DNA of 63,632 bases, counting the filler, from Fonticula-like sp. SCN 57-25 (taxonomy: Eukaryota), in NCBI GenBank assembly GCA_001724245.1. It is 7 parts of 7 records of this genome, joined end to end, with 100 filler letters (N's around TTAATTAATTAA, not from the genome) between each part and the next. Parts side by side here need not be neighbours in the genome. Positions count along the whole stretch, not along the records: positions 1 to 9,974 come from MEDX01000691.1; 6 more parts are not named here. The stretch is one strand, 5' to 3'. Of this stretch, positions 1 to 53,159 are shown in pieces. Positions within the stretch are counted from its first letter, which is position 1, and every line of letters begins with the position of its first letter. The notes under the pieces are model-generated. The model had not been told where the DNA came from. It made no database searches and saw only the letters and a list, made by a program, of their open reading frames with translations. Made by a program: the position numbers and the translations under genes.

Positions 1-996
1 CCCAACTATGATGTCTGGCCCGAGAATCCGCTCGCGATGCGCTTCTTTGACTACTCGTCGACGTACCGGTTCGACTCTGATGCCTATACCAACTTTTACA
101 TCCCCAAGAACATTGTGGCGATCGCGACTGCTCCTCCTCGCACGACGCTTCAGCAGAAGAGCAAGCAGTACACCGTGGGCTGGGTTGTCTCCAACTGCAT
201 CTCGTTCAACCGCCGCGAAGAGTTCATCCTCGAAGTGATGCGCCTGATGCCCGACACGATGCAGACGCTCGGGTCGTGCTGGCCCAACTCGCCCTGGCCG
301 ACGCGTGCTAGCACCGACGACAGCCCAGGCGAGCCCCTTTCGCTTGTCAACGTCATCGCGCAGTACCGCTTTTACTTTTCGGTCGAGAACAGCGACTGCA
401 AGGACTATGTCACCGAGAAGCTGATCAACGCGCTCGAGGCCGGCGTCGTTCCCATTGTCGGCGGCCCGCGCGCAAACTATGAAAATTTTGCACCGCTCAA
501 GGACGCGCTGATCTACATGGACGAGTTTGCGACGCCGGCGGACCTCGTGGCGCACCTCGACCACCTCGCGCGCAACGACAGCGCCTACATGCACCTCCTG
601 CGCTACCGGAACGTCCCGGGCACGACACCTGAGCCGCTCTCGCCGGCTTTTCTTGAGATGGCGCGCACGGTGCGGGACGCGCCGTCGCCATACTGCCGCA
701 TGTGCATGCTGGCGCACGAGGACGACGAGCGCGCCGCGGCGGGCCGCGAAGTGAGCGGGCCGCGCCAGGGCGAGCTGCAGGCGTCAGCGGTCCGATATGA
801 CGACACGTGCGTGCGGGATCGCTTCAGGGACCACGAGAACCAATGGGGCATGAAGCCATGGTACCCGTACTACTACCGCAGCAGGCACATCATCCTTCCG
901 ATTGCCGCTGTGCTGATTTTTGCGGCGTTGGCGGCCGCGGCGGTCGTGTTCTGGAGGTCGAGGAACGCCGCTCGGCGATCGACGAGCAAGGCTTGA
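1..996 (+). CDS. alpha-1,3/4-fucosyltransferase (GT10), 5'-partial, with C-terminal transmembrane helix
   Basis: Frame is open from base 1 (PNYDVWPENPLAMRFF...). Contains the GT10 motif YRFYFSVENSDCKDYVTEKLINALEAGVVPIV, plus WVVSNC and STYRFDSD. Hydrophobic C-terminus IILPIAAVLIFAALAAAAVVFW followed by a basic tail. Confidence 0.92.
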   Translation, partial: PNYDVWPENPLAMRFFDYSSTYRFDSDAYTNFYIPKNIVAIATAPPRTTLQQKSKQYTVGWVVSNCISFNRREEFILEVMRLMPDTMQTLGSCWPNSPWPTRASTDDSPGEPLSLVNVIAQYRFYFSVENSDCKDYVTEKLINALEAGVVPIVGGPRANYENFAPLKDALIYMDEFATPADLVAHLDHLARNDSAYMHLLRYRNVPGTTPEPLSPAFLEMARTVRDAPSPYCRMCMLAHEDDERAAAGREVSGPRQGELQASAVRYDDTCVRDRFRDHENQWGMKPWYPYYYRSRHIILPIAAVLIFAALAAAAVVFWRSRNAARRSTSKA

Positions 997-1269
997 TGCT
1001 ATTATTTGATGTAGAGTCATGAATCTGTACAGCCAGTAATGATTTTTGTAAATATTGTACCAATAGTGTAAATGGAATGATAATTTATCGCATCAATAAT
1101 GATCCGATATTCATGGTAACTGTGTCGCTGCAGGGCAGAAGTTCTTCTGCAGCGTTACGGCAAGCCCTACGGACTCCTACAAGCGCATTCGGCCCTGTGA
1201 AGCAGCGCAGGCGCCCCTTGGCCGCCGTGATTCTCGCCCTTTGCCTTTTTTGTAAACGATCTTCGTCCG

Positions 1270-1281
1270 CTGATTGGCTGG
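1270..1281 (+). promoter_or_regulatory. inverted CCAAT (NF-Y-type) box CTGATTGGCTGG
   Basis: The same 12-mer lies about 50-60 bp upstream of the ATG of all three paralogs; here the ATG is at 1341. Confidence 0.7.
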
Positions 1282-1340
1282 AAAACCTCTGAAGACAGAC
1301 TCTAGACTCCAGAGTCACGCGAACTCTTGTGCTGAGCCAG

Positions 1341-3755
1341 ATGTCGGGGCATGGCATCGCCCGCGTCCGCATTGCGGCTGCAGTGGTGACGCTATGTCTT
1401 ATAACGACAGTATATAGCCTGGTGGCTCGCAACGTTTCGCTTTCTTTTGAAGCGCAGCCGACGTCGATTTTCTTTTCGCTACTGGCGGGCACGGTAGTAC
1501 AAGGTTGCGTCGTAGCCTTTTTCCACATTGGATGGCTGTGCAAAACGGATGCCGCGGGCCTGAGCCAGGTCAGGCTGTGTACGCCAGGCGTCTGGCTTTC
1601 AGGGTTGCTTGAGTATGCCACTGTCCTATTGACTTTTGCATCTTTCTCATATGCGCCGCTCGCCGCCGTCGGGTCGATGCGCGCCGCCGAGCCAGTCGTG
1701 CCGGTGCTGCTGGTGGCCTTTTTGCGGTACCGCGCGCGCGCTCCAGAGCGGCCGTGGTGGGCGGTTGCGTCGGCATTGGCGCTATTGACCGGATCACTCT
1801 TGTCATTTTTTGCCGTCATTGACGAGGGATTCTGCAGCTCTGGGATCGTGTTGCTACTTTTGCTGGGCGTCAATGCGTGTCGCAACGTGCAAAGTGCGCT
1901 TCCTGAAGACAAGAACGCGCCCGACTTTGCCAAGCACATTGCGGCTTTGGCCATTGGCACGTTTGTTTCGTTTGTCTTTTCTCTCGCGGTCCCATCGTGG
2001 TCGCTCGCCTACATCGTGAATGCCACGTCAAACATCCCGTGGCATGTGCTCATGTGGCCGGTGGCCGGTTTAGCGCTCGCGGCGTACAGTGTACTGCTGA
2101 CAAGCTTGGCAACATGGTATGGACATAGTGTGTCGTTGATGGTGGCAGCGGCGCATCACGGTTTGTGCTTCGTCGCGGCATGCATCTTTGTGCCGGATGC
2201 CGCCCATGGCCGCGTCGCCATGCTGTGCTTTGGCATCATCTTTTTGCTGGCGGGCTTTGCGCTCCACTATTTCGGTGTTTTGCAAGTGCGCTATGAGATT
2301 ACGCTGCCGGCGAGCGACTCCAAGACGCGCGGTTTCGCGATGATGGACGTTGGCGTCATCGTGGTCGGCATCATCGCGGCGATTTTCTGGATCGTGCTGA
2401 GCGCGCGCGCCCCGCATCCCAGTTCCTCGTACGTCGCGGCACCAAAGCCGTGTTTACCGGCCACGCTCAGCGACACTATTGTTGGCACGCCGCCGCCACC
2501 GGCGCCTCCCGGGCACCTGGTTTTCTCGTGCTTTGACTTTCCCGGAAATCTCGGCGACACGGGTGTGCACAAGGCTTGTGAAGGCCTCTTTTCCGAGATC
2601 GCCGCCGAGGAGGGCTACAACATCACCTTTGTTAACAAAAAGTGGGCGACGAATGATACTGTTATGATTTACGGCGGCGGCTCGCTGCTCGGCTCTGACT
2701 GGGCACAAGAGGCGTGGTACAAGATTGCGCGCACCCTAGACCCGAACCGCTGGCGCTACCCGGTCTTTGTCTTTGGCAGCGGCTACGACGACAACGCCGT
2801 CACCTGGACGGCTAACCGCACGGCGCTGGACACTGTGCTGAGCGATTCCCTGGCTGTGGCCGACGGCGACGGCATGCGCGACGTTCACCTCTCGTCGTTC
2901 ACCTCGCCCGTGCCGCTGCCGCAGCAAATGTGCTACAACCGCCTGTACTGGCCCATTGTCATGCCAAACCTTCTTTATGGCGGCGTGCGCGGCCCGCTCA
3001 GCGCGCGCATTTTGTCGACGCTGGCGAGCGAATCCAACATCACCTACCCCGTGGCGCCGCACGTGCTCGGCGACTCTGGCGCCTTTATCGGCCGCTACTG
3101 GAACTACTCGCTCGGCCTCACCACCGAGCTCGGCCTGCACAACAAGACGTATGTGCTCATCATTGCCGGCAAGGCGAGCGACGGCACCTTTATTGTCGGT
3201 GCCGACCAGACGCACGCGCAGGTCGTCGTGCAGGAGGAGATTGCGCTGCGCGACTTTGCCATCCACGCGGTCAATGCGGGGTACACGGTCATGATTGCGC
3301 GCATGGATGACCCGCCGCTGGACCGCGAAATGGTCGCGTCGCTCTACAAGGGCGTGCGCGAGGGCCTGCATGAGACGATGCGCGAGCATGTATTGATGTA
3401 TCGGCCGGTGCCGAGCCTCGAGGGGCTGCTGGGCTTGATCAAGAGCGCGCACGTGGTTGTCGCGCACAAGTTGCATGGCGGTGTGTTTGGCGGCGCGTAT
3501 GGTGTTCCATTTATCAGTATTGCATACCGATTGAAGCACTATGACTGGGCCATGTCGCAGAATTCTGTTGACTTGGTTGTTCGTATTAGCGACGTCTCGG
3601 CGGCGGGCCTCATCGAGCGGTTCGATTATATCAATTCTGATTATGAAGCCATTCGCGAGCGCCTAACTGTGACCTCTACTGCGATTTTTGAAAAGTACAA
3701 GGTGGAGGCGCGCAGATTCATGCAGGCCGTTGGGACGATCTTTCGCGCTGAATAG
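1341..3755 (+). CDS. TPT/DMT-like transporter fused to polysaccharide pyruvyltransferase, copy 1
   Basis: About 10 N-terminal hydrophobic helices with SMRAAEP (TPT K-x-x-EP motif), one further TM helix, a Pro-rich stem, then GNLGD, YGGGSL, GVRGPLS, GDSG and KLHGGVFGGAYGVPFISIAYRLK (PS_pyruv_trans motifs). ATG 1341 chosen by alignment with the paralogs. Confidence 0.8.
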   Translation: MSGHGIARVRIAAAVVTLCLITTVYSLVARNVSLSFEAQPTSIFFSLLAGTVVQGCVVAFFHIGWLCKTDAAGLSQVRLCTPGVWLSGLLEYATVLLTFASFSYAPLAAVGSMRAAEPVVPVLLVAFLRYRARAPERPWWAVASALALLTGSLLSFFAVIDEGFCSSGIVLLLLLGVNACRNVQSALPEDKNAPDFAKHIAALAIGTFVSFVFSLAVPSWSLAYIVNATSNIPWHVLMWPVAGLALAAYSVLLTSLATWYGHSVSLMVAAAHHGLCFVAACIFVPDAAHGRVAMLCFGIIFLLAGFALHYFGVLQVRYEITLPASDSKTRGFAMMDVGVIVVGIIAAIFWIVLSARAPHPSSSYVAAPKPCLPATLSDTIVGTPPPPAPPGHLVFSCFDFPGNLGDTGVHKACEGLFSEIAAEEGYNITFVNKKWATNDTVMIYGGGSLLGSDWAQEAWYKIARTLDPNRWRYPVFVFGSGYDDNAVTWTANRTALDTVLSDSLAVADGDGMRDVHLSSFTSPVPLPQQMCYNRLYWPIVMPNLLYGGVRGPLSARILSTLASESNITYPVAPHVLGDSGAFIGRYWNYSLGLTTELGLHNKTYVLIIAGKASDGTFIVGADQTHAQVVVQEEIALRDFAIHAVNAGYTVMIARMDDPPLDREMVASLYKGVREGLHETMREHVLMYRPVPSLEGLLGLIKSAHVVVAHKLHGGVFGGAYGVPFISIAYRLKHYDWAMSQNSVDLVVRISDVSAAGLIERFDYINSDYEAIRERLTVTSTAIFEKYKVEARRFMQAVGTIFRAE

Positions 3756-4157
3756 ACTTTAAAGGGATGATTGTATAGGCATTTTTGAGCATGTGTAGTG
3801 TAATTTCAGATAAATGTTGTTAGCAATAAATCAATGTAAATAAATTACCGTAGCAAACGAAAGCAACATCGAATACAGCGCTGCTGCCGGCGGCAATTGG
3901 CTGCGGCGGCGGGTCTGGAGGGCGAGCTACGCCCATTGGTCGCGCACTGCAATGGTCAATCGAGAATCCAAGGTCACTTTAAAGCCTAAAACTTTGATTA
4001 TCCACTCTTTTATGACAGCCAACGGCGAATCCTGCCATTACCTAGCACTAGCTTCAACGTTGTTGTACAACAGCGAGTGTAGCGCGGCAGCCGGCAAGGC
4101 GGAACCTCGGGTCTTTGTGAGTGCCGAGTGAAGGGTCGATCAATGATCAGCGCTTCG

Positions 4158-4169
4158 CTGATTGGCTGG
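4158..4169 (+). promoter_or_regulatory. inverted CCAAT box CTGATTGGCTGG
   Basis: Same 12-mer, 52 bp upstream of ATG 4221. Confidence 0.7.
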
Positions 4170-4220
4170 TTCCAAATTGATTACTTGATGGGTGTCAAGC
4201 GCACTTCCTAATAGAAAAAC

Positions 4221-6608
4221 ATGGGCGACTCGCTAGGCATCGCGCGGGTCCGCGTTGCGGCCGCGGTGATCGCGCTATGCGTCTTGACGGCGTTATATAG
4301 CATTGTGTCTCGCAATGTTTTGCTTTCTCTTGAGGAGCAGCCGACGTCGATTATCTTTTCGCTGCTGGCTGGCACAGTAGTACAAGGTTTCGTTGTGGCC
4401 TTTTTATACTTTGGCCTGCTGTGCCGTTCGGGTGCCACGCGTCTGCATCAAGTTCAGCTATTTTCCGCAAACGTCTGGCTATTAGCGCTCGTCGAGTATG
4501 CTACAGTTCTGCTGACTTTTGCATCCTTTTCATATGCGCCGCTCGCCGCCGCCGTGTCAATGCGCGCCACCGAACCGGTCGTGCCAGTGCTGCTCGTGGC
4601 CGTTTTGCGGTACCGCGCGCGCGCCTCGGAGCAACCCTGGTGGGCGCTGGCGTCGACTGCGGTATTATTAACTGGGTCGCTGCTTTCGTTTTTTGCCGTC
4701 ATCGAGAACGGTTTTTGCAGCTCGGGGATCGTCCTGCTACTTTTGATGTGCACCAACGCGGGCCGGAACGTGCAGAGCGCTCTACCAGACGGCGACGACG
4801 CGGCCGAGTTTGCCAAGCGCGCTGCCTCTTTTGTTATCGGCCTTTGTGTTTCGTTTGTCTTTTCGCTCGCTGCCCCTTCCTGGTCGATCGCGTATATCTT
4901 GCAAGCCGGTTCGAACATCCCCTGGCATGTTTTTATGTGGGCGGTGGCCGGCGTGGCGCTCGCTGCCCACAGTGCACTGCTCGCAAGCTTGGCGACATGG
5001 TATGGACATAGTTTGTCGTTGATGTTGGTAGCGGCGCATTATGTTTTGTGCTTCATCGCCGCTTGCATCTTTGTGCCCGATGCCGCCGATTACCGGATTG
5101 CGATGCTGTGCTTTGGCATCATCTTTATGGTGGCAGGGTTTGCGCTTCAGTACGTTGGAGTTTCACATGTGCGCTTTGAGAGTACGATTTCTGCGGGCGA
5201 GGCCAAGACGCGCGGGCGCGGCGGCCTTTCCATGATCGATGTCGGCGTCATCGTGGTCGGCATCGTCGCGGCAGTTTTCTGGATCATCCTGAGCGCGCTC
5301 GGCCCCGTCCTCAGCCCGCCCTCGTACGACCCAGTGCCGCTCCCAAGCTCGCCGCCGCCACAAGTGTACCTAGCTCTTTCGTGCTTTGACTTTCCTGGCA
5401 ATCTCGGCGACACGGGCGTGCACAGGGCGTGCGAAGGGATCTTTGCCGAGGTCGCCGCCGAGGAAGGCTACAACGTCACCTTTATTGACAAAACGTCTGC
5501 GACGAACGATACCGTAATGGTGTACGGGGGCGGGTCCCTGCTCGGCGCCGACTGGGCGCAGAACATTTGGTATTCTATCGTGCGGAGCCTGAACCCGCAT
5601 CATTGGCGTTACCCGATTTTCCTCTTTGGCAGCGGCTATGACGACAACGCTGTCTCCTGGACGTCAAACAGCACAGTGCTGGACAGTGTGCTGAGCGAGG
5701 CTGTTGAGGTGTCGGCGGGCGACGGCATGCGCGACGTGCACATGTCATCTTTCAACACGTCGCTCTCGCTTCCGCAGCAGTCGTGCCCGAACCGCCTGTA
5801 CTGGCCAATTATCATGCCGAATCTTTTATATGGCGGCGTGCGCGGCCCGCTGAGCGCGCGTATCCTCGCGACGCTGGCGAGCGAATCCTACATCACCTTG
5901 CCCGTGGTTTCGCGCGTGGTCGGCGACTCTGGCGCCTTTGTTGGGCGCTACTCAAACGCCCAACTCGACCTCGTCGACGAGCTCGGCGTGCGCAACAAGA
6001 CATTTGTTCTGGTGCTTGTCGGCAAGGCGAGCGACGGCACTTTTCTTATTGGCGCGAACCAGACCCACGCGCAGGTCGTCGAGCAGGAGGAAGTTGCGCT
6101 GCGCGGCTTTGCCATCCATGCAGTCAAGGCAGGATACGACGTAGTGTTTGCGCGCATGGAGAGCCCGCCGGCGGACCGCGAGCTTGTCGCGTCACTGTAT
6201 AATGACACGCGCGCGGGTGTCAACGAGACACTGCACGATAATGTCAAGAGCTACCTGCCAGTGCCGACCCTCGAGAGTCTACTGGGCTTGATCAAGAGCG
6301 CGCACGTGGTAGTCGCGCACAAGCTGCACGGCGGTGTTTTTGCCGGCGCGTATGGCGTTCCTTTTATCAGCATTGCATACCGCTTGAAGCATTACGACTG
6401 GGCTATTTCGTTGAATGCCCCCGATTTGGTTGTTCGAATCAGCGACGTCTCGGAGGCAGGCCTCATCGAGCGGTTTGACTATATCAATTTAGAGTATGGA
6501 TCGATTTGCGAGCATCTATTGCTCTCGTCTTCTGCCATTTTTGAAAAGTACAAGGAGGAAGCGCGTAGATTTTTAAAGGCCGCCGCCGAGATCTACCTTG
6601 GCGGCTAG
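4221..6608 (+). CDS. TPT/DMT-like transporter fused to polysaccharide pyruvyltransferase, copy 2
   Basis: Full-length paralog of copy 1 (SMRATEP; GNLGD; YGGGSLL; GVRGPLS; KLHGGVFAGAYGVP). Single uninterrupted ORF. Confidence 0.8.
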   Translation: MGDSLGIARVRVAAAVIALCVLTALYSIVSRNVLLSLEEQPTSIIFSLLAGTVVQGFVVAFLYFGLLCRSGATRLHQVQLFSANVWLLALVEYATVLLTFASFSYAPLAAAVSMRATEPVVPVLLVAVLRYRARASEQPWWALASTAVLLTGSLLSFFAVIENGFCSSGIVLLLLMCTNAGRNVQSALPDGDDAAEFAKRAASFVIGLCVSFVFSLAAPSWSIAYILQAGSNIPWHVFMWAVAGVALAAHSALLASLATWYGHSLSLMLVAAHYVLCFIAACIFVPDAADYRIAMLCFGIIFMVAGFALQYVGVSHVRFESTISAGEAKTRGRGGLSMIDVGVIVVGIVAAVFWIILSALGPVLSPPSYDPVPLPSSPPPQVYLALSCFDFPGNLGDTGVHRACEGIFAEVAAEEGYNVTFIDKTSATNDTVMVYGGGSLLGADWAQNIWYSIVRSLNPHHWRYPIFLFGSGYDDNAVSWTSNSTVLDSVLSEAVEVSAGDGMRDVHMSSFNTSLSLPQQSCPNRLYWPIIMPNLLYGGVRGPLSARILATLASESYITLPVVSRVVGDSGAFVGRYSNAQLDLVDELGVRNKTFVLVLVGKASDGTFLIGANQTHAQVVEQEEVALRGFAIHAVKAGYDVVFARMESPPADRELVASLYNDTRAGVNETLHDNVKSYLPVPTLESLLGLIKSAHVVVAHKLHGGVFAGAYGVPFISIAYRLKHYDWAISLNAPDLVVRISDVSEAGLIERFDYINLEYGSICEHLLLSSSAIFEKYKEEARRFLKAAAEIYLGG

Positions 6609-6823
6609 AGTTTCAACCTTTATATTCACAGTTGTCGCAATTTTGAGCATGTCTTATGTTCTTTCATAGATGCATTCATTATATCATTCGATCATTGTAG
6701 GTAAATTCCACTAGTATATGGCAATAACATGCATTATCTCCTTCTTGGCCGGTCAATCCACTCATGTCAATCATGGCTGAATCAGCTGCTGGGCGCTTGA
6801 GGGGCAGTCAAAAAGAGTCGAAC

Positions 6824-6865
6824 CTGATTGGCTGGAAAAAATGGACAATCGATCTGATTGGCTGG
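6824..6865 (+). promoter_or_regulatory. duplicated inverted CCAAT boxes (6824-6835 and 6854-6865)
   Basis: CTGATTGGCTGGAAAA occurs twice, 30 bp apart; the second ends 52 bp before ATG 6917. Confidence 0.7.
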
Positions 6866-6916
6866 AAAATCTTGTCGATCCCCGGTGGTTTTAGCTTGAC
6901 GCACGCCGAGCGCACG

Positions 6917-9325
6917 ATGGCGCCCGGCATCGACGTCCTTAGGATAGGCGTAGCCTTGGCTGCGCTATGCAGCGCGACAGTATTATACAGCCTAGTGTCG
7001 CGGGAGGTGATGGATTCGCTGCCGTCCCATACATCTACAATACCATACTTTATTCTGGGCGGGAGCATCGTCCAGGCCTTTGTTATGGCCTTTTTTGCCG
7101 CCGTGGCACCCAGCAGCAGCACGCCGAGAGGCGATTTCCGCCTCTCATCTTTAGATGTGTGGCTGAGGGCTGCGGCCAATTTTTTTGCTCTCATTTTGAC
7201 GTACGCCACCTACTCGCTCGCGTCGTCCTTTGCGGCAGTCGAATCGGTGCGGGCCGCCGAGCCGTTCTTGCCGCTGCTGCTGGTGGCGTTCATGAAGCGA
7301 CGCGCCAAGGCATCTGAAGGGCCCTGGTGGTGGCTTGCTTCGGCCGCTCTATTATTTATTGGCGCAATTTTTTGCTTTTTCTCCATTGCTTTTGATCAGC
7401 GAGCAAGTGTTGCTTCAGTTTTGATGCTCGGGCTCTGCGCGAATCTAGCCCACACCATGCAGGACCAGCTCCACGACAAGGATGGCGCTTCCCAGTTTTC
7501 AGTTCAGTTTGCGTCTTTTCTGCTTTGCGTTTTGGTCTTTCTTGTCTACCTTTTGTTCAGCCCGTCATGCTCGCTTGTGCACGCCATGCATGTGGCAACC
7601 GTAGACAACCATCTGGTGATGCAGATCGCCATGTGGATCGTCGCTGGCGTCACGCTCGCCGTGCTCGACATGATCCTGTCGCACTGTGCGACGTGGCTCA
7701 GCCCGACTGGTATAATTATTCTGTCGGCGATTCACCACGCGGTTTGCATTGTCGGCGCGTGTATTGTCGTCCCCGGCGCTGTCGGCGGCGGCATCGCCAT
7801 GCTCTGCATTGGCATTATTCTTCTTGTGGCCGGGTTTGCCCTCCACTTTCGCGCGGTGCAGGCCGAGCAAGCTGTTCTTCCCATGCCGGCGTCTGATACG
7901 TGGGGAAGCGGTGCTGCGCCGCTCGACATTGCCGGCATCATCATCGGCATCGCCGCGGTTTGCTGGATTATTGTGGCGCGCTCGACGCCAGTGGTTACCC
8001 CTTCGTATGTTTCGATGCCGATTCTGCTCAACGGCAGCTCTGTTGATGGACAGTCTGCCTCTTTCAACCTGGCCTGCTTTGACTTTCCCGGTAACCTCGG
8101 CGACACGGGCGTGCACCTTGCCTGCGAGCGGCTGTTTGCCGAGGTCGCCTCCGAGGAGGGCCTCATCGTGAACATTATCCAGAAGGAGAGCGCGACGAGT
8201 GACACGATCATGGTGTACGGCGGCGGCTCGCTGCTCGCGACCAGCTGGGCGCAGCAGCGCTGGTTCAATCTGGCGGGACGCAGCATGGACCCGCACCGCT
8301 GGCGGTATCCGCTCTTTTACTTTGGCGGCGGCTATGATGACAACGATGTATCGTGGACGTCAAACACGACCATGCTCGACATTGTGCTTCGCGAAACTGA
8401 GGAGGTGACGGCGGGCGATGGGAGCAAGGACATTGACATGTCGAGCTTTAGCACGACACTCTCGCTTCCGCAGCAGTCCTGCACGCTTCGGCTCTACTGG
8501 CCGATTGTCATGCCGAATCTCGTCTATGGCGGCGTGCGCGGCCCGCTGACCGCGCGCATCCTTACTACTCTGGCGAGCGAGACGTCGCTGAGCATGCCGG
8601 CCTCGTCGCGCGTCATCGGCGACTCGGGGTGTTTTATCAACCGATACGTCGACACCAGCCTTGACCTCACAACGCGGCTCGACCTGGCCGACAAGCCTTT
8701 TGTTCTTATTCTCGCGGGCAAGTCGAGCGACGGCCAGTTCTTGGTCGGGGCGAACCAAAAGCAGAGCGAGGTTGTCCGGCAGGAGGAGGAGGCGCTCCGC
8801 GATTTTGGTGTTTATGCCGCCAATCAGGGGTATAAAGTCGCCTTGATTGCGATGGCAGGCCTGAATGAGGACATTGAGCAGCTCGCCTCGCTCCATGACG
8901 GCATCCGCGCGCGAGTGAACGCCTCGGTCGGCGATAATGTCGTGTTTGATTCCGAGTCGCCGTCGCTCGAAAACCTGCTCGGCTTGATTCAGCAGGCGCA
9001 CGTGGTGGTCGCGCACAAGCTGCACGGCGGGGTGTTTGCCGGCGCCTTTGGTACCCCTTTTATCAGTATTGCATACCGCTTGAAGCACTATGATTGGGCG
9101 CTGTCGCTCGACGCCACGGACTTGGTCGTGCGTATTAGCGACGTGACGGCAGACAGCCTCATTGACCGATTCAACTATATTCTCGCGGATTACGATTCCA
9201 TTCGAGATAGACTGCTGGCGAAGGCTGCTTTGATTCACGGCAAGTTCAAGGAGGAGGCGCGTCGCTTCTTACGCGACGCGGCTTTGATGGGCAGCGGCGG
9301 GCCGCTTCCTCATCGTGCCAATTAA
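6917..9325 (+). CDS. TPT/DMT-like transporter fused to polysaccharide pyruvyltransferase, copy 3 (most diverged)
   Basis: SVRAAEP; GNLGD; YGGGSLL; GVRGPLT; KLHGGVFAGAFGTP. ATG 6917 (MAPGIDVLR) aligns with the paralog starts. The longer ORF from 6764 reads through the promoter. Confidence 0.8.
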   Translation: MAPGIDVLRIGVALAALCSATVLYSLVSREVMDSLPSHTSTIPYFILGGSIVQAFVMAFFAAVAPSSSTPRGDFRLSSLDVWLRAAANFFALILTYATYSLASSFAAVESVRAAEPFLPLLLVAFMKRRAKASEGPWWWLASAALLFIGAIFCFFSIAFDQRASVASVLMLGLCANLAHTMQDQLHDKDGASQFSVQFASFLLCVLVFLVYLLFSPSCSLVHAMHVATVDNHLVMQIAMWIVAGVTLAVLDMILSHCATWLSPTGIIILSAIHHAVCIVGACIVVPGAVGGGIAMLCIGIILLVAGFALHFRAVQAEQAVLPMPASDTWGSGAAPLDIAGIIIGIAAVCWIIVARSTPVVTPSYVSMPILLNGSSVDGQSASFNLACFDFPGNLGDTGVHLACERLFAEVASEEGLIVNIIQKESATSDTIMVYGGGSLLATSWAQQRWFNLAGRSMDPHRWRYPLFYFGGGYDDNDVSWTSNTTMLDIVLRETEEVTAGDGSKDIDMSSFSTTLSLPQQSCTLRLYWPIVMPNLVYGGVRGPLTARILTTLASETSLSMPASSRVIGDSGCFINRYVDTSLDLTTRLDLADKPFVLILAGKSSDGQFLVGANQKQSEVVRQEEEALRDFGVYAANQGYKVALIAMAGLNEDIEQLASLHDGIRARVNASVGDNVVFDSESPSLENLLGLIQQAHVVVAHKLHGGVFAGAFGTPFISIAYRLKHYDWALSLDATDLVVRISDVTADSLIDRFNYILADYDSIRDRLLAKAALIHGKFKEEARRFLRDAALMGSGGPLPHRAN

Positions 9326-9974
9326 GTTTTGGGTTGACTTGCGGCCTTTGTATTTTGATTATCTTTTTTGACATGTCATTTACCTGCATTTTTCGTGTAA
9401 TTTAACAGCATTAATACATTGATTCAATTATACTACGAGCGTGACGGGAACGAGTTGGAGGCGACACGCGTTGAAATTCGTGAAAGCTTGGCTCAGCACG
9501 TTCACTATATGTTGCGCAATATCAAAGCGGATAGGCAGCAGCCACGAGCGTGCACATGACCCCTACTGGTGCGGGCCCTGATAATGCGCGCAGATGCCGA
9601 AACATTGGTGCAGATGTCGGCGGCCAGTGCGCCATTCCTGATTGGAAGAATTCGTTGTGCAAACTATCTGATTCCCGCCGCGCGCTTGCCTGTCTCCCTC
9701 GGCGGCGGCTCCGCAGTCCTTTTCAATGCGCGCGCGAAACTTGTCAAGCTTGTCGGGCAGCGCGAGATCGGCGATGAAAGGAAGGCGGCGCCGATAGTAA
9801 TCATTATACCTTTGCCAGTCTTCTTTGAATGCTTTTGAAGAGGACACCAATGGTTGCCACGGCAGCTCGCCCTTAAGCACCACACAAGCACCAATAAAAG
9901 CCCCTCGAAATCGTCCTCCATCTTCCACCCGCCACGCTCGAGCGCGCGCGAGCTAGCAAACATGGGCGTTCCTT

Positions 9975-10074
9975 NNNNNNNNNNNNNNNNNNNNNNNNNN
10001 NNNNNNNNNNNNNNNNNNTTAATTAATTAANNNNNNNNNNNNNNNNNNNNNNNNNNNNNNNNNNNNNNNNNNNN
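9975..10074. other. artificial contig linker
   Basis: 44 N + TTAATTAATTAA (stops in all six frames) + 44 N. Confidence 0.99.
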
Positions 10075-11049
10075 TGCACGCGCGCAGGCGCTGTGCGAGC
10101 GGCCAGCCAGCACACGCGCGCTTTGGCGCGCCCCGCGCAGGCGCGCGATGGCCCGCATCGCCGTGCGCCGAGGTGTGTGCTCTCGCGTCTTTGCGGACTG
10201 GCCGAAGTGCACGCGCGCAGGCGCTGTGCGGGCCGTCCCGTCACGGCGCAGTGCCCGCGCATTTTTGTGCTTTCTTTCGCTCCCTTACAATGCTTTCTGC
10301 GTCTCCCCTCTCTCTCGTTTTGTGACGGCCTGCTCCTGCAACGGCGTCTTTGTACGGCGTCGCTGTCTGCCTCTGACGCGCTTCGGCTCAGTCATGGGCC
10401 AGGCAGACGCACGGCGAACCCGCGCGATGAAGGCTGCATGCCTGCGTTTGCTCTGCGAGGCGTGCCAGCAGCAAAGCGTGCGAGGGCTTCATTTTCAGGG
10501 CCGTGCGGGGTTACGCACCACAAGTGTCTTTACTACTGACGACAGCAACGCGTACGCCTTTTATGTGCACCAACGGCGTCGGCGCCGCACCACAAGCCAC
10601 TGCAACACGCCAAGGTTCATTTCAACAAGCGCTTCAAAGTGCCTGGCACCACTTTTTCGTGGTCGTAAGTGAGGACCGCGCCGAGGTGTCGCTGAGCGTT
10701 GCTCGTTCTGCCGGCATGGCAAGCTACATTGTGATCTTGGGCGCCAATAAAACTCGTCGATGCTAAGGTTTAATGATAGAAAGATAATGTATTGTAGAAA
10801 AGACTGCGTAGTTGAAACGTCTGGAAAGAACTCGAATGATGGGAAAACGTTTGCGAAAATGGTAGCGCTCATTGCATGTATTAGAGAAAGATGACTAAAT
10901 AAAGTGCAAGGATACCGGTATGGCGGGAAGAGGTGCTAGTAATCACAACAGAGAAAGGAAAGAGCGGGGATCCGGCGGAGTCGATCATCACACTGACACT
11001 GCAAGCAACAAAAAAAGAGCGCTGAACACGAATCACAATAAGGCAAAGC

Positions 11050-14000
11050 TCAGATGCTCACGCTGTCAATCACGACGTTGGCGCGCTTCGCCGATGCAAC
11101 GCCGCGCTCGATCAAAGTGTTCACTGCAAGTGCCAGAGGAAGCAAGAGAAATATGAAAGTAAGCGAAATGGGCATATTTTGCACAGAAGGAGACGCACAG
11201 TCATTCAGACGCTGTCGCAAGAAATTGCTGGCGGGCGGAAAGACATCGGCCGGCCGGGAACTGCAGCGGGACGTTTTGTGAGCGGACAAATTAGTATTAT
11301 AGGTAGGTACGCCCATCAAAGGCACTGTGCCGACGCACAGCATATCGCGTAGCAGCGTAACCTCGCTGCGCCAGTGCGCAAGGACGGCGCGCATCTCGCG
11401 AGGCAGGCGGCCATTTGCCTCTTCGGCGCGCAGACGCTCTCGGCGCGCGCGCATGGCACGGCGCGCCGTCGGAATGAGAACCTCAGGCACGAGCGGCTCT
11501 TGCCGCCAAAATGAGGATGTCGGCGCCTCGCTGTCGGCCTGCGTCATCCTGGGGACGCCCGCGGCAGCTATCGTAGTAAAGTATGAAGGAAGGAAAGAAA
11601 GAAATCAAGGAAAAAGGAGCAATCCGAGTCAGTGTTGCGATCGATCCATGCATGCGTGAGTGCTCATGCAAACAGTCTACTACGAAGGGCGCACCCGGAG
11701 TGATCGTCACGGCCGCGTCGGGCGCCGCCGCCTCAGTCATAGTGGTACTTGTGGTTTCGACAAACCTATTGTAGGCGGCCACCTTCGTGTCGCGGGCCTT
11801 GGATAGGGCACGCTCCACGGTTTGAGCGTGCTGCGTCATCTTGTAGCCGCCTATGGAAAATGACAGCCGCTGAGCATGAGACACAATTTCACGGGCAGTA
11901 GAAGGTGCGCGCGGAATTCGTACGATAATGGCGTTGCGCGTGGCTTCTGGCGGCGACCAGTTGCTGGCCGGCCTGAGAGGCGGCCACAGCGAGGTGGTAC
12001 GCCTTGACCAGCACCTCCTCCACCTTACCGCAGAGGGCTTGGGCGCGGAATGACTGTGTCATGCCGGGCTGGGTCGGAGGCACAGGCGCGGCCATCATGA
12101 CCTTGTCGATGGCGTCAAAAAGAGCGACGTGCGACGGGTACCCTTCTCTCATGTACGCCGCGCTTCGGTCGCGATCATCTTGACTGCAATAGACGGCGAA
12201 TAAAAGTCGCGGAAGGAGAGCGAGTGAGTATAAGCGAGCATTTGAACGTATACGCATGATTGCATACTATACTGTCCAAAGCACAAAAAACAACGGGTAC
12301 AGCACAAGTCAAACGCAAACACAACGGCGAATCATGATATCGGCACACAACATATTATCACCACGCACAGTACTATTATAATAATGTGCGCGAGAACCCT
12401 GCTCCCGCACACTATATAGCACAGTATAAGGGCAACATACAAATACACACTGCAGTAGTGGACTCGAGCTGCTACTAGTATAGACGGCATGCAAGTACAT
12501 TCGAAATCCCTGCGACTGAAAACAAGAAACGTACGATGGTAAACTGAGACTCGTGGCGAATGCGTCGTAGACATAGCAGCAATACAGTCGGGCAGCACGA
12601 CCGACGTATCCTGCCGGTGGCAGACGGGAAAAAAGTGTGTAGCCCAGACACAATCAGCACCATATACGCATGCACCGAGCACCGTAAATAACCCGCGCAC
12701 CTCCGGTCCAATCGACGCCGGGACGTGCCTCGATTTCATCGAGCGATAGACCAGCCTCTGTAAGCTGATATGCGGAAGTGCGCAAGGTAACTTAAAGTGA
12801 GAAAAACAAAACGCAATATCTCGCGACTCAAAATGCGCGCGTACTGCTTGCGAGCATGTGGCGAGCTCTAGCGTGCTCGACTTGAGGCGTGCGTCCGCGG
12901 CGCGCAGCTGTTGGGTAAGCATTTTCACTGGGACCGAGCAGCGCGCCAGTGAGTACTTCTACTAATGAGGCTCCAGAGAAGTAGGGCCAGCGTCCCGCCG
13001 CCAGCTGGTATGCGGAAGTGCACCAACCCGGTGGCATTGCACGCAACATCGAGAACACTTATAAACATGCCAACGTGACGTACTGAGGCCCTCTTCCTTC
13101 TCGCGGTTTCTCACCGTTGCCAGGAAAAAGAGGTGCTCAAAAAAGGCGACCTCGCCAAGCTGGCGCAAAATAGACTTGTACGGCGCTGAGTAGCATCACA
13201 TAGAAAGGGGTAAGAAGAATCACTGGCAGGTGAGCATTGAAATGGGCCCGCGACGAATGGCGGGGCAGGTGGCGGACACAAAAACGACCAGAACCGCTCA
13301 GCCGACTCGCCGTCCCTGAGGCCGAGGCCCGGGGTTCGCAAAGGGTCATGGTTCTAGCAAGGGTCGGGATTACAAAAAGAGTCAGACCGACAGACACATC
13401 AGGCGCAGAGACGCTCATCGCAAATTATTGCTATTGGCACGTACGTCCTGGCATTTGGTCTGGTGACCGTAAAAGTGCATCCCCGGCAGGACAAACTCGT
13501 ACTCGCCTTCGATGAGCTCGACTAGACCGCTTGCATGCTGTCGAAAAAGTACGCACATAGCATGAGTACATGATGGTGCACGAGAACAAATGCAATTTCC
13601 GCCTAGTAGCATTGCACGAGAACGAATGTTGACACTGGCACAGCACTATCAGATAGTACTAATTGTACTGGCAGAGGAAGCGTACTCGCGTCATATAGGG
13701 CTTAAGCTTGCAAGCCAAGTCGTAAAACACGTACTTGGCCGGCTCGCCGCTTTGCTCCATATGCGCCAACAGCGCGACGCTGAGGTACAGACTGTGGGGA
13801 GAGAGGACGAGAGGGGGAAAGGGAAGCGAGGATTGTGTGCGTTAGTTATCGTGCTACTAGACGACAGAGACTCGAAGGCGTTGGTCATGCGATAATCTCA
13901 TCAAAGACTCCACAAGACAAGAAGCGTGATACACATTGTAAGATGAAGCCGCGGAAACAGACCAGATTTCAAGGCAACAACACGACTGGCGTACCGCTCC

Positions 14001-16071
14001 CCGGCATTCATGGGCGCCAGGGCCAACAGGAACCCATGATGGCACACGGCGCCCATGACGCCGGTCTGATCAAGATGTTGGTGACGTGTGGACACGTCGG
14101 CGAGCATGAGATCAGCGTCGGAGCCTTTGGTGACCCCGCATGTCTGCGATTCAGGGCAGAGATATCAGCTGCGCGAATTTGCTTCAGACAGTGCAGTGCG
14201 TCTCCCGCACCGCGTTTGTCGTGTTCCCCTGCCGGCTTACAGCGGCGGCGGCGGCCTCGAGGGTCGCGTCCGGCACGATAAGCTCCTTGTCTGCAACGAA
14301 CGAGGCGTCAGCAAATGAGCCACCCGCCCGTAGAAAACTCTATGAGGGCACAGGCGCACTGAGGCAAAGCGATGGGCGATGGCCGTTGATGTGCTTGTAG
14401 CGGACGGCTTGCATGCAGCCGTCAATGCATACAGCAGACTCGCCCTGTCGGCGATCAGTGAAGTTCAAGTAGGACCAGTCAAAATGATAAGGCACAGAAG
14501 AAGAAAGGATGCGACACGCGTGAGACACGCCGATGACTTCCATCACGAGTTTGACCGCAGTGCGGCAGGTGAGGTCACGCACAGGCAAACAGGCCCCGGC
14601 ACATCGAAAAGATGAAAATGGTGCAGCCGCCGCTGGCGCGGGCGTGCTCAGCGAGACCGGGCCGTCCGCCGAGCAGCGCGTCAACGCCCAGCGGTAGCTC
14701 TGCGCCATAAAAGCGCGATAAAAACTTGTCGCGTCATACAGCCTCGTTCGGAGGCTGCTGGTAGACGGCGACTACATGGCAAAAATCGTGGCGCAGGTGT
14801 GAGGCCGATGCGGAGGGCCGGTGCATTGGCATTCGCGCGAACGCACCGCAGTGTTATAACCGAAGCCAGCCGACAACACGCGCCAGACGTCATGTGTTGC
14901 CGTGCGCGCCTTGCCATAGAGTAAAGCGGCCAGTTGCAGCAACCGGCGGTGGAAGGCGGTCTCAGGCCGCAGCGGCGTGCCCGGCACAAAGCCGTGTGCC
15001 ATAAGGCACACCGCCAGGTCCGAGTCTGCGCCCGGTTCACTGGCACTGGCAGACGAACTTGTTGAACTTGTCCTTGCATCGGCAAAGAACTTGGCGCTGC
15101 AAACGCCTGCCAATGCAACACATGTCAGCTGCGGCACATACTCAGGCTAGTAAATATGCGAGTCATACCCCACTCGGTCACGACGACCACCTCACCCACT
15201 TCCGCTCCGTCGCAGGCCCCAAAGCAAACAGCCTCCGGCAGCACCGGCGTGCGATCAGCCGCACGCATGCGAGCGTGCAGCTGTCGCAACCCGCATGCCG
15301 CGCCACAGTGCAGAGTGCGGTCGCACGGTGCGCACAGAGGGCCGCACTCACAGCAGATCAGCGTCGCGGCGGCCGCTTGCGGTTTGCCGAGGACGCAGCA
15401 GATCGTGCAGTTCTGTTATGTTGGTGGGTAGGGAAGCGCGCGTCGCAGTCCAGTAAGTATCAGATAGGAAAAGAGCGTGCGCAGGACGGAGAGGAATTCA
15501 TGTACCTGACCATCGCGCAGCGTCATCGACGACGCAAGGGCGTCGGCAAGGAGCGCCTCCTTCTCTTGCCACCCAGCGACGCGGGCAGCTTCGGTGATGC
15601 GGTAGGCGCCTGGGCGACGGCGCTTCGTAGCGCGGTCGGCATCTTCCCTGCACGCGGCAACACCGTCAGCAAGTGGGTAGTGTGATCATTTAGTTGTGCG
15701 TACCCTTCTTTGCTTGTGTCGTCTTCGCCATCATCGGTTTCGCTATCCCACGCCGTGTCCTCGCAACTTGACTCGGACGAATCATGCGGATCGGGAGCGC
15801 CGTCGTCAGGTCCGTCGTCACAAAAGCCGCCAGGTCCGTCGTCGCCGACAAAGTCGTCGCGCCCGTCGTGCGACGGCGCAACGTGCTGGACTGGCACGCG
15901 GACAGCACTAGCACTGGCGACGTCCGCGCCGTCCTGCCTGCCCCTTGCAATCAGTTTTATGGCGCCATCGTCGTCTCCCGACGTCAACCGGGCCATAACT
16001 CGCGAGATCTGCGCCGACCTCTTGCGCTCAGCAACGCGCGCCATGTCGTACAACCTCTTGACTCCCTTCAT
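11050..16071 (-). mobile_element. KDZ (Kyakuja-Dileera-Zisupton) transposase gene, multi-exon, probably degenerate
   Basis: Motifs in the expected order on the minus strand: CxC-type HGFVPGTPLRPETAF (~14960-15000), FRCAGAC, CIDGCMQAVRYK, LDQTGVMGAVCHHGFLL...GERY (~13990-14075), FYDLACKLKPY (~13700-13730), PGMHFYGHQTKCQ (~13450-13485), PGLGLRDGESAERFWSFL (~13280-13335). These are separated by GT..AG introns. There is an in-frame TAG at 14340-14342. Gene ends are approximate. Confidence 0.8.
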
Positions 16072-18419
16072 CGCCGAGCTGATCAGCGGCAGATCCGCGC
16101 AGGATCTGGGCGCGCGAAGCGCATAGACAAGAGGAAACAGGCAAGGAAACAGCCAGGAGAGAGCCAAAAGGCACACGCTGCACGCGCAAAAAGCAGGCCA
16201 AAAGCTGGCCAAAAAGTGGGCCTTTTTTTTTTTAGTTCGGCGCACCTTTTTTGGCTGTTTAGGCGGAACAATCCGGATTTGATTGCATCTGCATCAGGGC
16301 ATTTTTATGCGTATTTTTCAGCGAGATACTCTATGCACTGTTGACAGACGGCACTATACGTCGAGTATTACGTATGCAGGGGTTGGCCTTGCTTATAAGG
16401 CAGCCAGTCCTGTGTATATTTTGCGTAATTGCATATAGAAAAATGTCGAATATTGTCATAAAAGAGTTATCCCCTAATCTCGTGCATAAAACTTGTGTGT
16501 TTCATTATCCTGTCACAAAACAAGGCCACGTTCTGTGTAAATGGTAAGGGCCTTTGCTGGCGGGAGATTTTGATCACCTGAACATGGTCAGAACTTTGCG
16601 TTAAACGAAGAATGCCACTATGTCATATGTTAACATACCCGAATCAATAATTGTACATCATAACTCGGTGCAAACACATGGGGCCTACAAGTACTATTAA
16701 GGGCGGAGGGCATCTATGCTATCGAAAAATTGCCCTTCACCAAGGGTCTCATCGTGCATACCCTGAAAATCGTGGATAAAATGGCACACGATCAGCTGAT
16801 TTGTCTGATTTTGCGGTCGCGAGTCGTTGCACTTGAGGATGGCGCGGTGGTGCATGCACCGCGCTACACTGTTAGCCTTCGCACTGTATTTTGTGCTGGT
16901 CAATGGTGGGGTCGCTCGGACAGCACAAAAAACTAGGTCAAGAGTGAGCTCTATTCGAGTATCATTACTACAGTACATATCTGTGTCGTTTACGCTACAA
17001 AATGCACATAGACAAGGTAATCTATTGTTCAGTCAAGTGCAGTTCCACAAGATAGCTCATCACCGGCAGGAATGAAGTGGTGGAAAAAACAGCAAAAATA
17101 TGCATTTGACCTTGACGCTGCGTTTTACCCGCCTATGATGATAGCGCTATTGACCCCTCACAATCAAACTACGTAACCACTACGAATAACGTTGACGCAG
17201 AATGAGCGCCATCAGTCGGCGACAGTAATGACTGTACCAGCGGCCATGTAGGCCGGCACGGCAGATATATCAGTCCAACCTAAATCAAGCTAACGGGTGA
17301 AAAAGAACAAAACACGAAACCGTTTGACATGCGCCGTTGTCCAAGTTAGTCAAAATATCACTCACAACAAGCTGTCACTCACAACAAGCTGATGTGTATC
17401 TTGTGCCATGTCAACGAAGCCGCGAAGGTAAAAGCGCTGTAGATTGAGCTAGAAAAAACGACCGTGCCTGTCATTCTCCGTCGTCCTGTTCAAGTGCTCC
17501 TTGACCGCGAGGGAGCTCGGGCCAGGCTGTTGTTTGCACAGACTTGGTACCACAGTGCCGAGACAGAAAACTGCTCATGTTAAGCCTGCGCAGGTGCAGT
17601 AGCTGCTCAAAGCGGCCCTGGGCGCATGTGTACAGCGGCAGAATAAGGAAGCGCGAGTAGCACCAGCGTGCCATGGTGGATCGCACACGCCATCAAGACA
17701 GGAAGCAGCCTTTCGCCACCAACAGCCACACCGCCGGCGGCACCGCTGTTGGCCAGCAGAGCCACCCCAGCATGAGGAGCACGACTGGGAGCTGTTTGAA
17801 AGTAGTACTCAGCGATGGCCGTCAATGAGGAGCTGGCGCGGCCACTAGCCGCAGCGGTGAGCAATTATAAACAAAAACAAGCACAAAACACACACAACAA
17901 AAACGGAAAAAGAAGGGAAGGAAATCTTTCAAAAGCAAAAAACGGGACGCACAGCCAAGGTGCAAGGCTACACCCGCCGCGTCCTTCAGGCCTAGACCTT
18001 GTTTTGATCTGAGTGGCGCTGCCATGAGTGCCGCCGTCGTCGCACAGCATGGTGAGAAACACACCAGGAAAGAGTCTTTGCCTCACGTCGCTGCAATTTT
18101 TACACTTGCTGAGCGCCAGACATAAAGCATCTTTAAGGTGAGGGGAGATCGTACCGTCTGCAGCGTGTCGCATGGGTCGGAGCAGAGCACACACAGGCAG
18201 CAGCCTGGCAGCAGCTGGGCAGCAGTGCAGAGGGCGTGGCCACAATCCGCCACATGGCCCTTTGTTTTTCTGGTTTGCCAGTTTGCCATTTTACTGTGTG
18301 GCCTGCTGCCTCGGTGCTGCCTCCAGAGGCTGCCTCACATCCCATCACTGGTGCTGGCCTCATCGGCGATTCAGCAGATCCACCACACGATCAACGTCGG
18401 TCGAGCGTGGGGCCAAAGA

Positions 18420-19958: not shown

Positions 19959-20058
19959 NNNNNNNNNNNNNNNNNNNNNNNNNNNNNNNNNNNNNNNNNN
20001 NNTTAATTAATTAANNNNNNNNNNNNNNNNNNNNNNNNNNNNNNNNNNNNNNNNNNNN
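19959..20058. other. artificial contig linker
   Basis: N44-TTAATTAATTAA-N44. Confidence 0.99.
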
Positions 20059-52871: not shown

Positions 52872-53110
52872 TCAGCGGGGCTGACCGCAACTGCGGGCAT
52901 TATGACCTGCCACTCCGCAGATGCTGCAGGAGATGGTTCGCGGGGGCCTTGCGGTTGCGGAAGCGGCGGTGGTGGCGGTGTCCACGTGCTCGAAGCGTGA
53001 AACATTCCGAGTCGTCGTGTTGGAAGGAGGGCGACCCCGCGCTCTGAGAATTGCCGGCTCACGGATCGGACCCTCCATCACTTCCGCGATCAGCTGCAGA
53101 TGCCTGCCTC
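52872..53110 (-). mobile_element. C-terminal remnant of a MULE/Mutator-like transposase with CCHC zinc knuckle
   Basis: IREPAILRARGRP..TRNVSRFEHV..CSICGVAGHNARSC resembles MULE/FAR1-type transposase C-termini. No DDE core is present. Confidence 0.55.
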
Positions 53111-53159
53111 CAAGTCCGCTCCGTGACCAACTTTGGCAGCTGCTGGCGGAGGAGGCCCG

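Follow-up and report, generated by a model that had tools for sequence, protein, structure and literature searches.

Can a single polypeptide both bring phosphoenolpyruvate (PEP) across a membrane and spend it on a glycan at the other side? The question is raised by three tandem genes at 1341-9325 of a 63,632-nucleotide stretch of DNA from Fonticula-like sp. SCN 57-25 (GCA_001724245.1; the whole stretch, seven parts of seven records joined with filler, is called the window here), each of which appears to join a transporter-like membrane domain to a polysaccharide pyruvyltransferase domain. The precedent comes from Schizosaccharomyces pombe, where, as an earlier note on this DNA correctly stated, the pyruvyltransferase Pvg1p requires the Golgi PEP transporters Pet1p and Pet2p, which are TPT-like (passages on this system in PMC6801904 and PMC4872226). 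In the yeast system carrier and enzyme are separate proteins, whereas the window proteins have both in one chain, with an altered Lys-Arg site in the carrier part. That the three genes each encode a ten-helix domain of DMT/TPT type, an eleventh transmembrane (TM) helix (TM11) and a pyruvyltransferase domain in one polypeptide is supported by the evidence given below; of the self-supplying transporter-pyruvyltransferase fusion proposed in the earlier note, the fusion stands in outline, while the self-supply is weakened by the altered phosphate site.

Copy 1 (1341-3755, plus strand) encodes 804 residues plus a stop, arranged as a TPT-like ten-helix domain, TM11, a stem and the pyruvyltransferase domain. 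Copy 2 (4221-6608, plus strand; 795 residues plus stop) has the same architecture, and copy 3 (6764-9325, plus strand) reads as 853 residues plus stop in its longest open reading frame (ORF), with an alternative start at Met52 (6917). ORF listing and translation give tandem frames on the same strand with 0 internal stops, in agreement with the three uninterrupted ORFs of about 800 residues described earlier; they are separated by spacers of 465 base pairs (bp) between copies 1 and 2 and 155 bp between copies 2 and 3. Identity to copy 1 in end-to-end protein alignment is 71% for copy 2 and 48% for copy 3. The ratio of nonsynonymous to synonymous substitution rates (dN/dS; Nei-Gojobori, copies 1 and 2) is 0.27 for TM1-10 and 0.30 for the enzyme domain, and reaches 0.57 in TM11 and the stem taken together; the DNA has a guanine-plus-cytosine (GC) content of 58%, and the dN/dS values mark the copies as selected coding genes, not as chance ORFs in GC-rich DNA. 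The tandem arrangement is not an artefact of a single assembly, because contigs from several runs bridge the junctions: those of public run X1, which is possibly the same sample as the window itself, span both (3491-6506 and 6508-9132), and the junction between copies 2 and 3 is also spanned in X2 (6189-7319) and in X4, from a separate study (6460-6872).

The membrane domain, divergent but of TPT/DMT type, extends over 1341-2300 (residues 1-320) in copy 1, about 4221-5183 in copy 2 and about 6917-7876 in copy 3 (all on the plus strand), and model helices and hydropathy agree on ten TM helices plus TM11 in every copy. TM4 carries the motif S-[MV]-R-A-[AT]-E-P in all three (S-M-R-A-A-E-P at 1674-1694 in copy 1, with further occurrences at 4557-4577 in copy 2 and 7244-7264 in copy 3, all plus strand); its arginine, R114 in copy 1, aligns with Lys204 of the solved TPT, GsTPT2 (5Y78/5Y79). 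With this protein the window domains have in common the ten helices, the [KR]-x-x-E-P of TM4, Thr188 and an aromatic residue at the Phe192 position, the last two being kept in all six sequences compared (copies 1-3 and the database proteins P0005, P0006 and P0007). The R-A-[AT]-E-P signature reported for a domain of about ten helices is thus found in 3/3 copies and at the expected place of the TPT alignment, although other residues of the phosphate site are altered.

The connection of this domain to its family runs through intermediate sequences. A profile built from the three copies and P0005, run with hmmsearch against 1,835,955,588 representative proteins, finds five proteins at E <= 0.001: copy 2, P0005, P0006 (348 residues, E 1e-25), P0007 (814 residues, E 4e-19) and P0008, the last a repeat protein that was set aside as a false match and noise. 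Against Pfam TPT (PF03151, gathering cut-off 30 bits), P0006 scores 79.5 bits and P0007 51.1, both passing, and P0005 16.5, below the cut-off; P0007 also passes PS_pyruv_trans. Against TIGR00817, the phosphate/PEP translocator model, P0006 reaches 53 bits and P0007 38.8, far under the cut-off of 317.9, and neither TIGR00817 nor NCBIfam at large gives a match for the membrane domains of the window. A six-sequence profile of the domain has, among 177,635 distinct PDB sequences and at E <= 10, a sole match, the TPT 5Y78/5Y79 (E 0.0088). In the ESM Atlas, the 10 best family-annotated matches of residues 1-330 all share family or clan (scores 0.95-0.96), the families listed being DMT families such as EamA, TPT, UAA, Nuc_sug_transp and SLC35F. 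Foldseek, started from a low-confidence structural model of the domain, returns DMT carriers at ranks 1-11 throughout (E 8e-4 to 0.02, template-modelling score (TM-score) 0.2-0.47), including SLC35B1, the CMP-sialic acid transporter, YddG, TPT and Vrg4, with the best TM-score for 5Y78 (0.42/0.47). A 5+5 internal repeat is not significant when TM1-5 are compared with TM6-10 by hhalign on the six-sequence alignment (probability 1.8%, E 0.01), and other Pfam families at E <= 10 match short stretches of the domain only. Judged by its sequence relationships, the domain appears to belong, as a highly diverged member, to the TPT branch within the DMT superfamily, to which it is linked through intermediates.

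The pyruvyltransferase domain, predicted to have a GT-B fold, occupies 2523-3752 (residues 395-804) in copy 1, 5376-6605 in copy 2 and 8069-9322 in copy 3 (all plus strand). Pfam PS_pyruv_trans (PF04230) recognises it with 38.8, 40.6 and 44.4 bits in copies 1-3 (cut-off 25.3) and is, among matches at E <= 1, the sole family to reach its curated cut-off in each copy; the match is confined to part of the profile, positions 226-278 for the first two copies and 127-278 for the third. Four motifs, located in copy 1 at 2544-2558 (GNLGD), 2979-2996 (GGVRGP), 3465-3482 (HKLHGG) and 3525-3539 (YRLKH; all plus strand), are present in 3/3 copies, so that both the motif set of the earlier note and the Pfam family it named are borne out. 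The PEP-site residues of CsaB and Pvg1p (R148/R217, R306/R337, H308/H339 and K328/K361, respectively; PMC10435577) have their probable counterparts, assigned by motif and spacing and not by residue-level structure alignment, in R550, K710, H712 and K732 of copy 1, all four of which are invariant in the five full-length members (copies 1-3, P0005, P0007). The window domain matches CsaB in the spacing of this R...[RK]-x-H...K pattern: H712 and K732 are 20 residues apart, the same as H308 and K328, and R550 and K710 are 160 apart, versus 158 for R148 and R306. NCBIfam adds weak matches to CsaB and WcaK (20-29 bits against an equivalog cut-off of 213); these bacterial enzymes differ in being soluble or peripheral, cytoplasmic, and directed to lipid-PP-linked acceptors. 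D406 in GNLGD is also invariant in 5/5 members and, by position only, is likely the counterpart of the catalytic D106 of Pvg1p, an enzyme that has no more than the Pfam family in common with the window domain.

Structural comparison places the domain at the level of the fold. The AF2 (AlphaFold2) model of residues 390-804, made from a five-sequence alignment, has a predicted local distance difference test score (pLDDT) of 74.2 and a predicted TM-score (pTM) of 0.79, and its Foldseek and VIA-align lists are filled with GT-B enzymes: the top VIA-align row has a Z of 17.9 over 298 residues with a root-mean-square deviation (rmsd) of 4.2, and the best rows cover 298-312 residues at rmsd 4.1-5.0. 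Pvg1p itself is described as GT-B-like and close to MshA (PMC4872226). As modelled, the GT-B fold fits the domain but does not set a pyruvyltransferase apart from the rest of the GT-B enzymes; the best 50 Foldseek/VIA-align matches listed include no pyruvyltransferase structure, not even 5AX7 (Pvg1p), which says nothing on membership. In the PDB, phmmer with the copy 1 domain gives 0 matches at E <= 10, and a full-length family profile run against the PDB sequences has no pyruvyltransferase match. Residues 391-814 of P0007, in the Atlas's own model, align with a PS_pyruv_trans cluster from bacteria (TM-score 0.65 by that row). We accept the domain as a putative ketal-pyruvyltransferase of a divergent subgroup.

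Between the two domains, TM11 (2340-2402 in copy 1, where it resembles a type II signal anchor; 5232-5294 in copy 2; 7916-7978 in copy 3; all plus strand) leads into the stem (2403-2522, plus strand, residues 355-394 in copy 1); the eleventh hydrophobic helix is there in 3/3 copies, and the stem has a high proline content in the first two copies and a lower one in copy 3, much as the earlier note had read them. Lysines plus arginines (K+R) are distributed over the predicted cytosolic and luminal loops in ratios of 12:2, 11:2 and 8:2 in copies 1-3, 9:0 in P0005 and 13:1 in P0007. Counts as one-sided as these imply that TM10 ends in the cytosol and that TM11 takes the stem and enzyme to the lumen or the outside; by the positive-inside rule, the enzyme domain should thus lie on the luminal or extracellular side, so that the luminal placement proposed earlier holds as a prediction. 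A ten-helix carrier with a cytosolic C-terminus can be fused to a type II enzyme without topological conflict. The five fusion proteins have 30 N-x-S/T sequons between them, 26 of which follow TM11, a clustering that is consistent with this topology, but weakly so because the membrane domains are poor in Asn. Pvg1p (5AX7) is likewise a luminal, TM-anchored PS_pyruv_trans enzyme, and the succession of TM11, stem and catalytic domain in the window proteins has the same type II logic (PMC4872226). Were the topology reversed, or the location a different one, the enzyme would be cytosolic and act on lipid-linked precursors, with a membrane domain unrelated to donor supply; bacterial CsaB and WcfO do have lipid-PP-linked sugars as their acceptors and work on the cytoplasmic side of the membrane (PMC6801904), and the topology of the window proteins is predicted only, but the charge distribution in 5/5 proteins, the position of the sequons and the layout in common with Pvg1p make such an arrangement very improbable.

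We favour the reading, with a confidence that falls a little short of even, that the product of each gene is one membrane protein of the secretory pathway, whose carrier part still moves PEP by way of a modified site. The protein would sit in the Golgi, or possibly in the plasma membrane, with both ends of the ten-helix domain in the cytosol; TM11 would serve as a signal anchor, as in Golgi enzymes of type II, followed by the stem and then by the GT-B enzyme on the luminal or extracellular side. There the enzyme would transfer pyruvate from PEP to a glycan and release inorganic phosphate (Pi), pyruvyl transfer being a reaction that frees Pi from PEP, as measured in the CsaB assay (PMC10435577). 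The fused carrier would deliver PEP beside the active site and return the released phosphate in 1:1 exchange, as in the TPT family; in the solved TPT, the three cations of the site drive a strict 1:1 exchange of a phosphorylated C3 compound with Pi (bioRxiv 10.1101/169169). Since PEP use would yield Pi right beside a carrier that exchanges the two one for one, the cycle would be closed, each PEP paying for the import of the next. In the plasma membrane the fusion would matter more, because exported PEP would otherwise diffuse away. The three copies would probably differ in their acceptor glycan. The idea of a physical coupling between donor import and transfer is shared with the non-covalent assemblies of mammalian Golgi SLC35A2/A3 with MGAT1-5 and B4GALT1 (PMC9368800, PMC6453868); these are separate proteins and use nucleotide-sugar donors, whereas the link in the window proteins is covalent and the donor presumably PEP.

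How far the carrier part can be expected to move PEP depends on the phosphate site, which in the solved TPT consists of Lys204, Lys362, Arg363 and Tyr339, four residues described as strictly conserved in plant phosphate translocators (bioRxiv 10.1101/169169). Their counterparts were read from a HMMER alignment to 5Y78, with an offset of 89 that reproduces His185, Lys204, Tyr339, Lys362 and Arg363. The Lys204 position is R in copies 1, 2 and 3 and K in P0005, P0007 and P0006, and is thus basic in all members. The Tyr339 position is Y in copy 1, P0007 and P0006, H in copy 2 and P0005, and L in copy 3; the Lys362 position is H in all three copies, E in P0005, and K in P0007 and P0006; the Arg363 position is H in copies 1 and 3, Y in copy 2, S in P0005, and R in P0007 and P0006. 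In the place of Lys362-Arg363, the window proteins therefore have His272-His273 in TM9 of copy 1 (2154-2159), His-Tyr in copy 2 (5037-5042) and His-His in copy 3 (7733-7738; all plus strand). The register at this pair is supported by the equal spacing of 23 residues between the Tyr339 and Lys362 positions in GsTPT2, P0006 and copy 1. As P0006 and P0007 keep the K, the Y and the K-R, the family descends from a carrier of phosphate-translocator type; P0007 is, by its residues, a promising candidate for a true PEP/Pi exchanger with its enzyme attached. From the plastidic TPT/PPT carriers the window proteins differ in their His-His or His-Tyr for Lys362-Arg363, in the variable Tyr339 position and in the fused enzyme, and a plastid context is unlikely.

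A number of observations weigh against PEP transport and transfer by the window proteins. They keep one of the three cationic residues of the phosphate site, as Arg, and have the Lys-Arg pair replaced, and every mutation tested at the phosphate-binding residues of the solved TPT greatly reduced exchange (bioRxiv 10.1101/169169). A MAFFT alignment places a one-residue gap just downstream of Lys362/Arg363, where the register could be off by one residue; no offset restores Lys-Arg. One cation with histidines speaks against canonical PEP/Pi exchange. Pfam TPT and EamA, which the earlier note had suggested as the check on residues 1-330, do not match the membrane domains of copies 1-3 (residues 1-360) even at E <= 10, so that the check fails when made directly and the homology holds through intermediates only; the AF2 model of the domain is poor (pLDDT 46.5). 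On the side of the enzyme, no sequence search tied the domain to Pvg1p, and the first basic residue of R-x-H is Lys in 5/5 members (HKLHGG), a family-wide Arg-to-Lys change; in CsaB, R148K, a conservative change at another PEP residue, abolished activity (PMC10435577). PEP import by the window copies is plausible, yet weakened rather than strengthened by these sequences: of the donor importer claimed in the earlier note, the TPT-derived domain in the same polypeptide stands, and the loss of the Lys-Arg pair leaves the import of PEP not secured.

The same substitutions may mean that the carrier is retired. The proteins would then be normal luminal pyruvyltransferases, with the TPT helices serving as an anchor, as a module for retention or oligomerisation, or as a dock for a separate PEP carrier. 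TPT and nucleotide-sugar carriers form dimers. Lys362/Arg363 are lost in 3/3 copies and in P0005, and Tyr339 in 2/3 copies, all of them residues whose mutation cripples a real TPT (bioRxiv 10.1101/169169); the domain has diverged beyond detection by Pfam; an enzyme-less relative with an intact site exists in P0006; and mammalian Golgi carriers and transferases associate non-covalently (PMC9368800). P0006, however, comes from a contig of 1258 bp and is possibly incomplete, and the fused domain is not in the state expected of a relic: the ten helices are kept in every fusion protein, though the loss of an even number would spare the topology, the dN/dS of TM1-10 is no higher than in the enzyme domain, and Thr188, the aromatic residue at the Phe192 position and the basic residue at the Lys204 position are retained. 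The intact helices, the invariant His at the Lys362 position of the three copies and the dN/dS together argue against simple decay, and we consider retirement unlikely, if far from fanciful. In its fullest form, the favoured reading becomes that of a self-contained pyruvylation machine with a closed PEP-in/phosphate-out cycle, in which this lineage has remodelled the phosphate site so that a single Arg works with two His and the carrier would be non-canonical, for example pH-sensitive or no strict exchanger; for all of these elements to hold at once seems quite unlikely.

The remodelled site could also signify a new specificity, with the domain an active carrier for some other solute: a nucleotide sugar for a neighbouring transferase, phosphate exported alone, or a small anion. 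The Pfam TPT family includes nucleotide-sugar carriers, the Atlas neighbours of residues 1-330 are mostly nucleotide-sugar-carrier clusters, and SLC35B1 and the CMP-sialic acid transporter head the Foldseek rows, albeit for a low-confidence model. A possible client is near at hand: directly upstream of copy 1 and on the same strand lies a GT10 fucosyltransferase ORF (1-996, plus strand; Pfam 124.5 bits), open at the window start and with a hydrophobic C-terminal segment that is followed by basic residues. Set against this, the nearest sequence relatives have the phosphate-translocator Lys-Arg signature and match TIGR00817, the one PDB sequence found is a phosphate translocator, and a PEP-using enzyme is fused to the domain in 5/5 full-length members, which argues for a common substrate or product; we regard another solute as decidedly unlikely. 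The GT10 ORF and the three fusion genes may together amount to a small cluster for the modification of glycans. The pyruvylated glycans of sponge and sea hare are also fucose-containing (PMC6801904).

How widespread the fusion is can be judged from the relatives. The metagenomic proteins P0007 and P0005 can be aligned to the window proteins over their full length, and P0006 ends without an enzyme domain. Word-indexed homologue searches return three proteins with P0001 as the query (copy 2, a near-identical variant of copy 3, and P0005), three with P0007 and, with P0006, only the query itself. A metagenome scan gave 175 pattern-matching stretches with one relative, the P0007 contig, and there are 0 relatives in the 21 stretches from a scan of viral contigs and in the 64 from a scan of prokaryote genomes. 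The close family is very rare, consisting of the three copies, P0005 and P0007, plus P0006 without the enzyme part. The combination of TPT and PS_pyruv_trans is rare, not unique: the ESM Atlas cluster nearest to P0007 (score 0.93, 198 of 256 features shared, a language-model similarity that involves no alignment) contains 60 'hypothetical proteins', 97% of them with PF04230 and 93% with PF03151, all eukaryotic, with Mollusca as the commonest phylum and a representative of 613 residues, shorter than the window proteins. P0007 and this cluster have a Pfam-recognisable TPT domain, unlike the window copies. The window genes are real, divergent and uncharacterised variants of a rare transporter-enzyme fusion that is visible in databases.

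In the full-text literature (subscription-only papers being outside the scope) we found no paper that describes or tests a TPT-pyruvyltransferase fusion and none that joins a pyruvyltransferase with SLC35, and PMC3111387 has nothing on such a fusion; the earlier note, which knew of no characterised example, was right in this, though the architecture has proved rare and not unique. A life-cycle study of Cryptosporidium reports two pyruvyl transferase genes expressed in female stages, in passages that make no mention of a carrier domain (PMC6877471). The networks of the published sequence-space survey were restricted to proteins of 250-600 residues (PMC6801904); fusions of 800 residues would therefore be excluded, which may explain why they were overlooked. 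Passages of PMC6801904 and PMC6994554 that treat two known pyruvylated glycoconjugates, the glycolipids of the sea hare Aplysia and a sponge proteoglycan, name no enzyme for them; the mostly molluscan Atlas cluster fits both and is offered as a lead. The P0007 gene lies at 1188-3632 of a 4400-bp metagenome contig (L001), downstream of an Abhydrolase_3 esterase/lipase (5-817, plus strand, 143.9 bits); no glycan genes are apparent on so short a contig.

Some features of the locus stand apart from the question of transport. The longest ORF of copy 3 opens with an N-terminal extension of 51 residues (6764-6916, plus strand) that contains LIGWK twice and has no counterpart in the other two copies; their Met1 aligns with Met52 of copy 3 (6917), which may be its true start. 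When copies 1 and 3 are compared, dS in the enzyme domain is 0.86, about half of the 1.74 in the membrane domain, for which gene conversion in the 3' halves or a constraint on codon usage could be responsible. An 8041-bp contig of another assembly encodes an ENA metagenome protein of 853 residues (P0004) that is nearly identical to copy 3, from which it differs by a few substitutions; this organism, or a strain close to it, has thus been assembled at least twice. All runs that contain the locus are DNA runs, sampled from metagenomes labelled bioreactor, wastewater, aquatic and 'fungus'. At 9484-9800, immediately past the end of copy 3, the summed contig depth rises about 5-fold in 4/4 runs (in X1, 81.7 against about 16), which suggests a repeated or multi-copy element. 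Two other accounts of the layout were rejected: one long multi-exon gene is ruled out as every copy has its own stop and aligns end to end with the others, and an assembly duplication is ruled out by protein differences of 29-52% and by the contigs of other runs that bridge the junctions.

The rest of the window is typical of a eukaryote. Its ORFs match, in Pfam, BTB-BACK, PPP1R21, PB1, Roc, TIR, ankyrin, protein kinase, GH30 and hybrid histidine kinase, among them a Roc GTPase-domain ORF (20007-21680, minus strand), a TIR-domain ORF (25694-26458, minus strand), a GH30 glycosidase (30562-32121, plus strand) and a hybrid histidine kinase with a receiver domain (52921-54402, plus strand), four genes that taken together point to a protist living freely or to an organism resembling a fungus; 15 ORFs in 9563-20011 have no Pfam match. 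ORF density is low and GC content patchy. The window DNA is eukaryotic; an origin from a giant virus was considered and rejected in view of the typical eukaryotic signalling genes and the long ORF-free stretches.

Glycan pyruvylation in eukaryotes is understood in fission yeast only, where the enzyme and the PEP carriers are separate. With a natural fusion, the coupling of donor import to transfer in the secretory pathway would become directly evident, a point that for the mammalian nucleotide-sugar case rests on interaction assays, and as a single gene it allows transport, transfer and topology to be examined together. The window copies, with two cationic residues that are regarded as essential to the TPT mechanism replaced in a domain that is still under purifying selection, amount to a natural experiment. 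Pyruvate caps mimic the charge of sialic acid (PMC4872226), and a one-gene pyruvylation module could serve glyco-engineering. The architecture seemingly also occurs in molluscs, whose pyruvylated glycolipids have no known enzyme. If the reading as a closed cycle is true, these proteins would be the first understood natural fusion of a donor carrier and a transferase in the secretory pathway, and would put a name to the missing pyruvylating enzymes of protists and invertebrates.

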